The notes under the pieces: model-generated | Told to the model about the DNA's origin: nothing | Seen by the model: only the letters and a program-made list of their open reading frames with translations | Database searches by the model: none | Made by a program: the position numbers and the translations under genes | Shown here: in pieces, positions 3,871 to 9,242 of the stretch | How positions within the stretch are numbered: the stretch's first letter is position 1 | Layout: every line of letters begins with the position of its first letter | Virus genome (UHGV): UHGV-0137562 | Source of the DNA: a virus | DNA length: 19,149 bases | Reading direction: 5' to 3' (one strand)

Positions 3871-4392
3871 TTATTTCGATATCGTGATGTTGTTTTCCTC
3901 GTCAAACTTTCTGATTACTTCTTTCGCCTCTTCGAATGAAGAACATACTTTTTGCACTCTTGCATTAAGCAGTCGCTTATGAGCGATCCATCTTTTCCGC
4001 GTGTTGCAAAAGTAAACTCCAGATATTCCGCTGGAGTTATTTTTAGATAGTTTGATTCTATTCCTTTGGTTTGCTGATTTTTTCACAAGACGAAGATTTT
4101 CAATTCTGTTGTCGTGTCGAATCCCATTTATATGGTCAATTTCCATGCCTTCTGGAATATCTCCGTTAAACATTACCCATACGATGCGGTGTGCTAGCCA
4201 CTTAATGCCGTTAATTCTTATGCGGATATATCCATTGCTTTCTAAAAGACCAGCAACTTTCCCAGCGTGTTTTGCATTCCAAACGTTGTGATAGTTGCGA
4301 TTCTTTTTGTTGTTGAAAAATTCAGAGCTTCTGGCTTTCCAAACCAAAGAACCATCGCGGTATTCGAAGTATTCATTCAGTTCCATGCTCAT
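3871..4392 (-). CDS. HNH homing endonuclease with AP2-like DNA-binding domain, 173 aa
   Basis: Motif EIDHINGIRHDNRIENLRLVKKSANQRN is a classic HNH (His-Asn-His) core. It is followed by SGISGVYFCNTRKRWIAHKRLLNARVQKVCSSFEEAKE, resembling the AP2 domain common in phage HNH endonucleases. Gene is AT-rich, on the opposite strand, and its stop abuts the scaffold stop. Confidence 0.8.
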   Translation of the reverse strand: MSMELNEYFEYRDGSLVWKARSSEFFNNKKNRNYHNVWNAKHAGKVAGLLESNGYIRIRINGIKWLAHRIVWVMFNGDIPEGMEIDHINGIRHDNRIENLRLVKKSANQRNRIKLSKNNSSGISGVYFCNTRKRWIAHKRLLNARVQKVCSSFEEAKEVIRKFDEENNITISK

Positions 4393-4459: not shown

Positions 4460-5755
4460 ATGACTCTCAAAGAAGGGCAGTTAGTTACTTACGCTATCGA
4501 TGAAATCATCGAAACCGTCCAGAACCTGACGCCAATGGCGTCCAAAGTGACAAAATACACCCCTCCGGCAGAATCCATGCAGCGTTCAAGCAACACCGTG
4601 TGGATGCCTGTTGAGCAGGAAGCGCCAACCCAGACTGGCTGGGATTTAACTGGCAACGCAACCGGGATTCTGGAACTCTCCGTGAAATGCAACATGGGTG
4701 ATCCGGATAACGATTTCTTCGAGCTTCGTGCAGATGACCTGCGTGATGAGCGTTCTTACCGTCGCCGCATCCAGGCATCCGCCAAAAAACTGGCGAATAA
4801 CATTGAGTCAGCGATTGCCAAACAGGCAACTGAAATGGGCTCGCTTGTTGTTCACGATACCCGCGCAATTGGTCCATCTACTGGCCTGTCTGGCTGGGAT
4901 TTTGTGTCTGATGCAGAGCGCCTGATGTTCTCCCGTGAGCTAAACCGCGATATGGGCATCAGTTACTTCCTGAACCCTGACGATTACCGCAAAGCAGGCC
5001 GCAACCTGGTAGATGGTGACATCTTCGGGCGCGTTCCTGAAGAAGCGTATCGCAACGGTACTATTCAGCGTCAGATTGCTGGCTTTGATGAAATTCTTCG
5101 CTCGCCGAAACTTCCTGCAGTTACCAAGTCAACCGCTACTGGTGTAACTGTTTCTGGTGCGCAGAAGTTTAAGCCGCAGGCATACACCCTTGATACCGAT
5201 GGTAACAAAGAGAACGTCGACAACCGTGTTGCAACGGTGACCGTATCCTCCACCACCGGATTTAAGCGCGGCGACAAAATCAGCTTCACTGGTGTGAAAT
5301 TCCTGTCTCAGATGGCGAAGAACGTGCTGACTGATGATGCGACTTTCTCAATCACCCGTGTGATCGATGGTACTCACATCGAAATCACGCCGAAACCGAT
5401 TGCACTGGATGACGCGTCACTGACAAAAGAAGAGAAGGCTTACGCTAACGTAAACACCTCTCTTGCTGATTCCACTCCGGTAAACGTTCTGAACGTGGCA
5501 ACAACCACCGCTAACGTGTTCTGGGCTGATGACTCAATCCGCCTGCTGTCTCAGCCGATTCCGGTAACCCATGAACTGTTTGCTGGCATGAAAACGTCTT
5601 CCTTCAGCATTCCTGGTATTGGTGTTAACGGCATCTTCGCAACGCAGGGTGATATCAATACTCTGTCTGGTAAGTGCCGTATTGCTGTGTGGTATTCAGC
5701 ATGTGCTGTACGGCCAGAGGCAATTGGTGTTGGTCTGCCTAACCAGACCGCGTGA
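4460..5755 (+). CDS. Major capsid (coat) protein (P22 gp5-like, HK97 fold), 431 aa
   Basis: Length matches P22 coat (430 aa). N-terminal and internal segments ([46 protein letters not shown]) agree with my recollection of P22 gp5. Followed by a strong terminator. Confidence 0.92.
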
Positions 5756-5763
5756 TAACCAGA

Positions 5764-5785
5764 GGGAGCTTCGGCTCCCTTTTCT
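5764..5785 (+). terminator. Rho-independent terminator after the coat gene
   Basis: GGGAGC-TTCG-GCTCCC hairpin (6-bp GC-rich stem, 4-nt loop) followed by TTTTCT, immediately after the coat stop. Confidence 0.65.
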
Positions 5786-5798
5786 ATTGGAGATACCA

Positions 5799-6392
5799 AT
5801 GAGCGTAATGATTTTTCAGGCTGGCGGAGATACCAAAATCTGGGGACGCAAGCTGAAAACGAAAACCGTTGATCCTGATGATGTAGCTGTGCACTTAGCA
5901 AATGGCTGGTATAAGCACCCTGACGATGTTCCTGATGATCCTCTTGTTGGTGATCACATTAGGAGTGTTGGCGTAGGTGAAACTTCCCCAGTTGATATGG
6001 GCGAAGTGTCCGACGGTTATCACACTTTTAACGAGCTTTACGCTCACCGAGTGCGCCTCTTCTCATCGCTGATGCATGCTTACGCTGAGCTTTCGTGGTG
6101 GTCTCGCAAACACAGTGACGGTGAAGAGTGGGATGGCTGGATCATTGCTGGTATCACCACTCCAGAAGGCGAAATCACTTATCACCTACCTGTTGAAGAA
6201 ATCGAGTTCCTTCCTGAAGGTACTGAGCTTGAGTTCGGGAAAGAGTGGGATGGTCATGAAGCAAATGATGTTCTTGGACGACTCCTGAGTTTGCGTCCGG
6301 CTATTGCAGAGCCAGAGCCAGAAGAAAAACAGCGTAAAAAGCCTGGTCGAAAACCTAAGGCGGCAGCAGATGAACCTGACAACGAAGGGTGA
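5799..6392 (+). CDS. Hypothetical, strongly acidic protein (197 aa) with lysine-rich C-terminal tail
   Basis: ATG at 5799 preceded by GGAG with 6-nt spacing. Very high Asp/Glu content ([41 protein letters not shown]), then [11 protein letters not shown]. Occupies the coat-to-gp4 slot, overlapping the gp4 start by 23 nt. No function recognised. Confidence 0.6.
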
Positions 6393-6870
6393 TTTAGTCC
6401 TTGCGGCATTACGTAAGCTCGGTGTGGCATCAAATGCCACGTTAACAGATGTCGAACCGCAGTCTATGGAAGACGGCGTCAACGACCTTGAAATGATGAT
6501 GGCTGAATGGATTGGCGGTGATGCGTCACCTGGTATCAACGTTGGCTACATTTTTGCTGATGCAGATGTTGCTCCGGATCCGGGCGATGAGCACGGTTTA
6601 TCAAATAACGCTATCAATGCCGTCATTTTCAACCTTGCCTGCCGCATTGCTCCAGATTATGCGCTGGAAGCGTCTGCAAAACTTATAACCACTGCCAGAT
6701 ACGGGAAAGAGCGACTCGTCAAACTGTCTGCAATGGACAGAGCAAAAGCCGCTAAATGTAAGTCAGGTTATCCAAACCGTATGCCTGTTGGTAGTGGTAA
6801 CCAGTTGGCGAAGTGGAACGGTTGGAATTACTTCCAGCGAAAGGAACCTTGCGATAACGGGAGCGAATAA
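6370..6870 (+). CDS. Head completion / tail accessory protein (P22 gp4-like), 166 aa
   Basis: N-terminus [33 protein letters not shown] and later [14 protein letters not shown] match my recollection of P22 gp4. Length equals P22 gp4. The upstream in-frame part of the 6304 ORF is rejected as start. Confidence 0.85.
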
Positions 6871-8289
6871 ATGCCGATTCAGCAACTTCCGCTTATGAAA
6901 GGTGTCGGCAAAGACTTTCGAAACGCCGACTATATCGACTATCTGCCAGTGAATATGCTGGCTACACCAAAAGAAATCCTTAACAGCAGCGGATATCTTC
7001 GCTCATTCCCGGGCATTGCCAAACGTTCTGATGTGAACGGTATATCGCGCGGCGTCGAGTACAACATGGCGCAGAGTGCTGTATATCGCGTGTGTGGGGG
7101 CAAGCTGTATAAGGGCGAAAGCGAAGTCGGTGATGTTGCCGGAAGTGGTCGTGTATCAATGGCGCATGGTCGGACATCTCAGGCTGTAGGCGTTAATGGT
7201 CAACTGGTAGAGTATCGCTATGATGGCACGGTTAAAACCGTCTCAAACTGGCCTGCAGATAGCGGATTCACTCAGTATGAGTTAGGTTCGGTTCGTGACA
7301 TTACGCGCTTGCGTGGGCGTTATGCGTGGTCAAAAGACGGCACTGATTCATGGTTTATCACTGACCTTGAAGACGAATCGCATCCTGACCGTTACAGCGC
7401 ACAATATCGTGCCGAGTCTCAGCCTGACGGCATCATCGGCATCGGAACATGGCGAGACTTCATCGTCTGCTTTGGTTCATCGACGATTGAATATTTCTCC
7501 CTGACTGGCGCAACCACCGTTGGTGCCGCTTTGTATGTCGCACAGCCATCACTGATGGTGCAAAAAGGCATCGCCGGGACTTACTGCAAAACGCCGTTTG
7601 CTGATTCGTATGCGTTCATCAGCAATCCGGCAACAGGTGCGCCGTCTGTGTACATCATCGGTTCCGGTCAGGTATCACCAATCGCCAGCGCGAGCATTGA
7701 GAAAATACTACGCTCCTACACTGCTGATGAACTGGCTGATGGCGTGATGGAGTCTCTGCGATTTGATGCGCATGAGTTGCTGATTATCCACCTTCCGCGC
7801 CATGTCCTCGTGTACGACGCATCTTCAAGCGCCAATGGTCCGCAATGGTGTGTGTTGAAAACAGGCCTGTATGACGATGTGTACCGCGCTATCGACTTCA
7901 TTTACGAAGGCAATCAGATAACGTGCGGCGATAAGCTGGAGTCCGTGACCGGGAAATTGCAGTTCGACATCAGCAGCCAGTATGGTCTTCAACAGGAACA
8001 CCTGCTGTTTACTCCTCTGTTCAAAGCGGATAACGCCAGAGTTTTCGACCTTGAAGTTGAATCTTCAACTGGCGTTGCGCAGTACGCTGACCGCCTGTTC
8101 CTCTCTGCAACCACTGACGGAATCAATTACGGACGTGAGCAGATGATTGAGCAGAATGAACCGTTCGTTTACGACAAGCGCGTTTTATGGAAGCGAGTCG
8201 GGCGCATCAGGAAAAATGTTGGCTTCAAATTGCGCGTTATCACGAAGTCACCTGTAACTCTGTCTGGCTGCCAGATAAGGATTGAGTAA
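6871..8289 (+). CDS. Tail accessory protein (P22 gp10-like), 472 aa
   Basis: Same length as P22 gp10. N-terminus [46 protein letters not shown] agrees with recalled P22 gp10. ATG directly follows the gp4 stop. Confidence 0.88.
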
Positions 8290-9242
8290 TGGCTGATTCG
8301 AATCTCAATGAGCCAGTAATCATCCAGGCTACGCGGCTCGATACATCAGTCCTTCCACGCAATATCTTCTCGCAGTCATATCTGCTGTACGTTATCGCAC
8401 AGGGTGCTGATGTTGGTAACGTGGCTAACAAGGCCAACGAAGCAGGGAAGGGGGCTTATGATGCACAGGTGAAGAATGATGAGCAGGATGTCACCCTTGC
8501 AGACCATGAATCCAGAATTGCTGCTGCTGAAGCAACTCTCGTCAATCATGAACATAGAATCGCAGCAGCGGAAAGCACTCTTGCAGATCATGAAACAAGG
8601 ATTACGGCTGCCGAAACAGAGCTGGCTGATCACGAGACGCGAATTGCTGCCAATGAATCTGAGTTAGCAAACCATGATGCGCGAATAACTCAGAATACAA
8701 CCGATATCAACGCACTTGATACCAGGCTCACAGCGGCAGAGGGAAGTATTTCGACGCTACAAAGCACAGTTGGTGATCACTCAACAAGAATATCTGCGCT
8801 TGAGTATGCCACCACGCGCAAGAAATCAGAGGTTGTTTACTCAGGAGTATCGGTAACCATTCCAACAGCGCCGACCAACCTTGTTAGCCTGCTGAAAACG
8901 CTCACGCCGTCATCCGGGACGTTGGCACCATTCTTCGATACTGATAACAACAAGATGGTTGTTTTCAACGAGAACAAAACCCTGTTCTTCAAGCTGTCGA
9001 TTGTCGGGACGTGGCCCAGCGGAACCGCAAACAGGTCAATGCAGCTAACCTTTTCCGGATCTGTTCCTGACACACTGGTAAGCAGTCGCAACTCGGCGAC
9101 AACAACCGATAACATCCTGTTAGCTACGTTCTTCAGCGTGGATAAAGACGGCTTTCTTGCCACAAATGGCAGTACGTTAACCATCCAGTCAAATGGGGCG
9201 GCGTTTACTGCCACAACCATCAAGATAATCGCGGAGCAGTGA
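8289..9242 (+). CDS. Tail needle (P22 gp26-like) with extended C-terminal knob domain, 317 aa
   Basis: N-terminus [43 protein letters not shown] matches the conserved gp26 N-terminal tip. Followed by a repetitive ADHE.RI.AAE coiled-coil region and a roughly 170-aa beta-rich C-terminal extension, as in Sf6/HK620-type knobbed needles. TAATG overlap with the gp10 stop. Confidence 0.85.
8493..8702 (+). repeat. Five tandem 42-bp (14-codon) repeats in the tail-needle coiled coil
   Basis: Translated units: [14 protein letters not shown] / [14 protein letters not shown] / [14 protein letters not shown] / [14 protein letters not shown] / [14 protein letters not shown]. The DNA repeats are visibly similar (e.g. 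gctgatcacgagacgcgaattgctgcc). Confidence 0.8.

Follow-up and report, generated by a model that had tools for sequence, protein, structure and literature searches.

The late (virion) region of a P22-like Escherichia coli prophage (UHGV virus genome UHGV-0137562) contains an ORF for a 197-aa protein between the coat protein gene and gp4, and the question raised by this locus is what role such a protein plays within a late head operon. The sequence analysed, referred to here as the window, is a stretch of 19,149 nucleotides with the gene order terminase, portal, scaffold, minus-strand HNH gene, coat, the 197-aa ORF, gp4, gp10, Sf6-type needle, ejection proteins, immI-like region and tailspike. 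A first-pass annotation had considered the protein to be strongly acidic and had proposed for it either an Ocr/ArdA-like DNA-mimic function or a role as decoration or assembly factor. The features of the locus are listed below in window coordinates.

4460–5755, plus strand: P22-type coat protein gene, left neighbour of the ORF (PF11651 P22_CoatProtein, E = 1.2e-164)
5761–5782, plus strand: terminator-like hairpin 3' of the coat gene, with a 9-bp stem and a UUCG loop, followed by UUUUCUAUU
5789–5792, plus strand: GGAG ribosome-binding site, 6 nt 5' of the ATG at 5799 (from the sequence)
5799–6392, plus strand: whole ORF, 197 aa, from the ATG at 5799 to the TGA at 6390–6392 (from the translation)
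5799–5930, plus strand: small N-terminal domain, aa 1–44, a beta-hairpin and helix with a GW..HP motif (pLDDT about 83–93)
5931–5999, plus strand: acidic disordered linker, aa 45–67 (pLDDT <50 at aa 48–63)
6000–6293, plus strand: WDGH domain, aa 68–165, an optional cargo (PF25311; alpha/beta, pLDDT 95–97)
6294–6389, plus strand: disordered tail made up of a PE-rich spacer, a basic stretch and an acidic end (pLDDT about 50)
6370–6870, plus strand: gp4 tail accessory/head-tail adaptor gene, right neighbour of the ORF (PF11650 P22_Tail-4, E = 2.1e-58)

The ORF is clearly coding, with matches to Pfam (E = 1.3e-39) and to the PHROG family phrog_3769 (E = 9e-101) and with hundreds of homologues. Directly 3' of the coat stop codon (5753–5755) lies the hairpin at 5761–5782, with a U-tract directly 3' of it. 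This hairpin was not called by a consensus terminator scan; RNA folding then confirmed it, with the 51 nt from 5750 to 5800 folding at −17.4 kcal/mol (z = −2.87), and it is identical in phage Louie. The GGAG ribosome-binding site follows, and the start codon of gp4 (6370) lies within the ORF, giving an overlap of 23 nt, of which 20 nt (6370–6389) fall in the tail segment. The description in the first-pass annotation of an ORF with its own GGAG site behind the coat terminator, overlapping gp4 and placed in the late operon, is therefore supported. It should also be noted that a weak 5-bp hairpin (5786–5800) pairs part of the GGAG site with bases just 5' of the ATG and, together with the upstream hairpin, may keep expression of the ORF well below that of the coat protein.

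An AlphaFold2 model built from 77 sequences (mean pLDDT 82) divides the protein into the four parts listed above. The linker carries a net charge of −4 over 23 aa, and both its length and its sequence vary in the alignment. The tail is conserved across short and long forms of the gene and contains a basic stretch with seven K/R in 14 residues (aa 176–189). The lysine/arginine-rich tail noted earlier was thus recovered, although the protein does not end there, its last eight residues being acidic (ADEPDNEG). The WDGH domain was matched by PF25311 over aa 68–165 and model positions 1–97 of 97 (134.8 bits against a cut-off of 27), and in a Pfam scan of the ORF at E ≤ 1 this was the sole match, with no Ocr, ArdA, Tad2, Sequestin or Acb domain present. 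The PHROG match spans aa 1–195, i.e., the full length, while the N-terminal domain alone matches phrog_1175; both families are annotated as of unknown function. No matches to the ORF were found with PADLOC or NCBIfam.

Orthologues with approximately 61% identity occupy the same slot in P22-like phages of Salmonella, among them phages L (Orf186), ST64T (orf-186), epsilon34 (gene 6), ST104 (ORF54) and BTP1. The synteny was confirmed by the flanking PF11651 and PF11650 genes and by the same position in epsilon34. The genes of L/ST64T, epsilon34 and ST104 share with the ORF not only the slot but also the four-part architecture, a KKPGxKPK tail and the approximately 61% identity, which extends over aa 1–167. 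The allele described here is longer (197 aa against 186 aa in the Salmonella orthologues) and differs in its linker. Although new as an E. coli allele, it belongs to a gene and family that had been catalogued before (the WDGH entry in Pfam, L orf186 and epsilon34 gene 6), and both L orf186 and epsilon34 gene 6 have been annotated as "function unknown" (PMC8022706, PMC2629481). In P22, the homologue has a large internal deletion and is non-essential in the laboratory (PMC2629481), which agrees with the earlier remark that P22 has no gene of this size at this position.

To this deletion can be added a number of short alleles. The slot genes of the P22-type phage SPN9CC (69 aa), Proteus phage Brookers (84 aa) and Pseudomonas phage PfAn1 (151 aa) were aligned, and in all three the N-terminal domain is kept and the WDGH domain is absent. 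The KKPGxKPK tail is kept in SPN9CC and Brookers and weakly conserved in PfAn1. The closest E. coli phages, Louie, IME10 and APC_JM3.2, match the window in the flanks only. In Louie (L001, PQ850616.1, 3201–3449), an unannotated short allele of approximately 82 aa was found, consisting of the N-terminal domain, SEPE repeats and an identical KKPGRKPK tail, and in the coat gene and hairpin, and once more from the PE-rich spacer on, the DNA of this phage is nearly the same as that of the window. In the Louie record, the annotated ORF is instead one of 45 aa that overlaps the coat gene, and gp4 starts approximately 90 nt too early. The short alleles and the identity of the Louie flanks indicate that the WDGH domain is an optional internal cargo of a conserved carrier gene; it is absent from the same gene in SPN9CC, Brookers and Louie and dispensable in many relatives.

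A search of 5426 complete E. coli genomes showed near-identical copies of the ORF (97–99% identity) in 42 of them. A further 175, of 217 genomes with any match, share only the last approximately 90 nt (the tail and gp4 junction, window 6304–6392), with 97.5–100% identity in the matches sampled. As this end alone is common to the 175 genomes, the recombination boundary of the variable cassette lies in the PE-rich spacer. The length of this spacer varies, being EPEPE in the ORF, EPESEPESEPE in Louie and longer EP repeats in another WDGH representative (P0004). The ORF is a variable slot gene of P22-like phages, the frame of which consists of an N-terminal domain of approximately 45 aa and a flexible KKPGxKPK tail; in the prophage and in L, ST64T and epsilon34 this frame carries an inserted WDGH domain.

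The WDGH family comprises 3645 clusters (50% identity, E ≤ 1e-3) and is phage-borne, with 200 matching phage records. These include Listeria A511-like phages, large Bacillus phages and phages of Streptococcus, Lactococcus, Staphylococcus, Klebsiella, Erwinia, cyanobacteria and actinobacteria, so that the hosts span several bacterial phyla, both Gram-negative and Gram-positive. In Firmicutes, WDGH is mostly a stand-alone protein of 100–130 aa. Invariant or near-invariant residues are S71, D72, G73, H75, T76, F77, E79, L80, Y81, H83, R84, W100, S102, H105, D107, G108, G113, H129, W150, D151, G152, H153, D157 and R161. The ORF carries both the W150-D151-G152-H153 motif and the SDGYHTF..LY.HR motif, which are invariant or at least 90% conserved in alignments of 77 and 150 sequences. 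The conserved His, Asp, Arg, Trp and Tyr residues fall in loops and strand ends of the model, and this conservation pattern suggests a pocket or active site rather than a charged surface. Tandem duplications of the domain occur in at least four representatives (P0140, P0152, P0177 and P0247), an indirect hint at a dimeric unit.

Searches for a relative of known structure were negative. Against the PDB, phmmer and a profile of 150 sequences gave best E values of 0.25 and 0.52, which are chance matches (antibody fragments, PARG and H-NOX, E > 0.2), and Foldseek of the model returned nothing at E ≤ 0.001. A BFVD fold search returned only WDGH-family proteins and small proteins like the N-terminal domain, and no structural similarity of the model to Dec or to any virion protein was found. 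In full-text literature, "WDGH" occurred in unrelated papers only and "PF25311" in none; neither term occurred in the supplements of the study describing Sequestin (10.1101/2025.07.12.664507).

Indications as to function were obtained from domain fusions. Among 150 representatives (50% identity), the partner domains were Sequestin in six, Lar restriction alleviation in three, a Tad2-like domain in one and the Acb2/Tad1 hairpin in one, amounting to about 7% of representatives with an anti-defence partner. One protein (P0101) combines Tad2-like, WDGH and Sequestin domains, and three others (P0077, P0082 and P0108) combine WDGH with Sequestin. The other partners were an RNase_T exonuclease in one representative (P0235), YodL, DUF551 and zinc ribbons, and no virion-structural partner domain was present among the 150. 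In most of 20 long multi-domain WDGH proteins that were scanned with Pfam, no partner domain was recognised. It was fusion to Tad2 or Acb4 that had led to Sequestin (PF21825), later validated as an inhibitor of type I Thoeris (10.1101/2025.07.12.664507), and the WDGH family shows the same signature of fusion to known sponges.

Gene neighbourhoods point in a similar direction. In two independent contigs, the gene next upstream of WDGH encodes a Tad2-like protein (L012, 5071–5952; L013, 4108–4953), and WDGH is thus genetically linked to known sponges both by fusion and by adjacency. These Tad2-like proteins, at 281–293 aa, are much longer than a single Tad2 domain, and further unannotated domains must therefore be present in them. 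The triple fusion is encoded between lysis genes and packaging/portal genes (L011), while in another contig (L014) the WDGH gene lies among three DNA methyltransferases. In Bacillus phage vB_BanS_Nate (L007, 3348–4548), the NADAR gene gp135 begins within the WDGH gene gp134. NADAR is an ADP-ribose-processing family, and the overlap may hint at the ligand class of WDGH. In Firmicute prophages, WDGH is found in an accessory region near SSB, YopX, MazG and methylase genes, and ASCH is also among its neighbours. Large lytic phages and Pavtok-like phages carry it in early or accessory operons, and in Streptococcus phage IPP66 it has the portal gene on one side and the gene for a minor head protein on the other.

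The reading tentatively favoured here, at somewhat short of even probability, is that of the WDGH cargo as a soluble counter-defence protein with no structural role, directed at an immune signal derived from nucleotides. The signal would be a small molecule of the type made by Thoeris, CBASS or Pycsar systems, and the domain would either bind it or, as seems more likely, hydrolyse it in a candidate ligand pocket lined by the near-invariant His, Asp, Arg and aromatic residues; a dimer or larger oligomer would be the probable active form. Hydrolysis is favoured over pure sequestration because of the many invariant His and Asp residues. Being transcribed and translated with the late genes, the protein would be present while the coat and other late proteins accumulate. 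Coat and other late proteins are frequent triggers of such immune systems, and we infer that co-expression with the coat late in infection may coincide with signalling set off by the capsid.

A number of points weigh against this proposal. The ORF itself has no known sponge domain, and the Sequestin of the WDGH fusions could be a mere oligomerisation helix bundle. The Pfam model for Lar amounts to little more than a zinc ribbon. The ORF sits in a late operon behind a terminator-like hairpin, whereas the majority of anti-defence genes characterised so far are early ones. Known sponges recognise their signal by positively charged pockets, whereas the WDGH domain of the ORF has a net charge of −14.

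Sequestin, Tad2 (PF11195) and Acb2/Tad1 resemble WDGH in being small phage accessory modules that often stand alone. WDGH differs from them in having no similarity to them in sequence or fold, and its invariant His and Asp residues would point to catalysis, unlike the passive binding of the sponges. The logic proposed here, that of a small phage enzyme destroying a signal, would be common to Acb1 (a 2H phosphoesterase), Apyc1 (an MBL fold) and Acb5. The last of these uses R10, W38 and H61, and conserved His, Arg and Trp are likewise found in WDGH; no homology to any of the three was detected, however, and WDGH has no PDB neighbour. As the ORF contains no such domain and has no PDB relative, it cannot be assigned to the Tad2, Sequestin, Acb2 or Acb5 class. 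The 2H phosphoesterase motif is H-x-T/S-x, and a 2H phosphoesterase reading of the His motifs of WDGH (YHTF, YHLP and WDGH) was rejected, the spacing being a misfit. TadIV-1 was found from the literature to be unrelated.

A DNA mimic of the Ocr/ArdA type, with an acidic surface that would fill the groove in which type I restriction enzymes bind DNA, would account for the composition of the protein and for the three fusions to Lar, a restriction-alleviation domain. The proportion of D+E is the highest in the window (19.8%, with K+R at 10.7%) and the net charge is −18, so that the protein is indeed acidic, but the first-pass annotation overstated this; the pI of 4.79 is close to those of the portal (4.82) and the needle (4.87) of the same window. 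T7 Ocr (from NC_001604), taken as positive control for the charge comparison, has a pI of 4.05 and a net charge of −28 over 117 aa. This corresponds to −0.24 per residue against −0.09 in the ORF, a density about 2.6 times that of the ORF, which thus reaches about 40% of the Ocr density and is not very highly charged. Part of the acidity lies in the disordered, poorly conserved linker, five of the 20 acidic residues in the WDGH domain are conserved, and the pI of this domain over 150 representatives ranges from 4.4 to 6.8 (median 5.35), so that acidity is not a conserved trait of the family. Ocr and ArdA do share net negative charge, small size and the status of a phage accessory gene with the ORF, but they differ from it in fold, charge density, conservation pattern and expression timing, and a position in the late operon is the wrong timing for protecting incoming DNA. 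The structures of Ocr and ArdA are present in the PDB, and a fold of this type is not supported since the model has no match there, just as no Ocr or ArdA match was found in Pfam. A DNA mimic is therefore considered highly improbable, and what stands of the original suggestion is its broader part, an accessory and possibly anti-defence gene, which is supported by domain fusions and neighbourhoods and not by composition.

Alternatively, the protein could be associated with the virion, either as a low-copy head or internal protein or as a non-essential assembly helper, with the N-terminal domain and basic tail targeting it to the capsid, portal or DNA; the WDGH cargo could then enter the next cell together with the DNA. 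The ORF lies inside the head/tail-completion block and is translationally overlapped with gp4, its N-terminal domain and basic tail are conserved across Salmonella, E. coli, Proteus and Pseudomonas P22-like phages, the WDGH gene of IPP66 lies among head genes, and late expression of a counter-defence protein makes most sense if the protein is packaged. Against this, the virion gels of epsilon34, a phage with the full-length orthologue, differ from those of P22 in the size of gp13 and the tailspike and show Dec as the only added band, with no visible band for epsilon34 gp6 (PMC2629481), a result with which a low-copy protein would be compatible. The dispensability of the P22 homologue, the early or accessory operons in which WDGH is found in large lytic and Pavtok-like phages and the lack of similarity between the model and Dec or other virion proteins also argue against it. 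A virion-associated role is accordingly regarded as quite unlikely, and the decoration or assembly factor of the first-pass annotation is also disfavoured by these gels and by the absence of WDGH from many relatives. An enzyme or small-molecule binder unrelated to immunity, with a function in nucleotide or nucleic-acid metabolism, host takeover or regulation, is a less remote alternative, though still an unlikely one. The association with sponges would then reflect no more than the tendency of accessory modules in phage genomes to cluster. The many near-invariant His and Asp residues, which suggest catalysis or metal binding, are consistent with such a role, as are the RNase_T fusion, the MazG, SSB, methyltransferase and ASCH neighbours and the fact that about 90% of the WDGH representatives have no recognised anti-defence partner. 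The recognised partners, however, are dominated by four different anti-defence families, the adjacency to a Tad2-like gene recurs in separate contigs, and WDGH has been freely gained and lost within one slot gene, a behaviour typical of arms-race cargo and not of core metabolism.

Returning to the proposed counter-defence module, the WDGH family can credibly be put forward as a candidate new class of counter-defence proteins in phages. It is large and phage-restricted, its fold has no solved relative and its invariant residues resemble an active site. A more far-reaching form of the proposal is that WDGH represents an unrecognised, widespread phage enzyme family that destroys or sequesters a nucleotide immune signal, with the slot gene as its late-operon carrier, either co-expressed with the capsid proteins acting as trigger or loaded into the virion through its N-terminal domain and basic tail for use in the next host; this is possible, although it must be considered doubtful as a whole. 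Should WDGH indeed neutralise an immune signal, it would constitute a major new counter-defence family in Salmonella and E. coli P22-like phages, Listeria A511-like phages and large Bacillus phages, and the question would arise of why a counter-defence gene sits in a late head operon. The natural occurrence of long and short alleles of the slot gene in otherwise near-identical phages makes the hypothesis easy to test.

Elsewhere in the window, an HNH_3 endonuclease gene (PF13392, E = 4e-22; 3871–4392, minus strand) lies between the scaffold and coat genes and is also found in Louie. Its appearance is that of an insertion of the homing-endonuclease type in the late operon. The tail needle (8289–9242) has an Sf6-type knob (PF16532), and the Pfam match of the tailspike (17129–18838) is limited to the N-terminal P22 head-binding domain, the receptor-binding part being without match. 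Between gp16 and the tailspike lies the immI-like region (13738–16724). It contains a minus-strand ORF of 223 aa at the position of sieA, hydrophobic-looking and without Pfam match, a 271-aa ORF also without Pfam match, and a Bro-N/P22_AR_C antirepressor gene (14965–15687).
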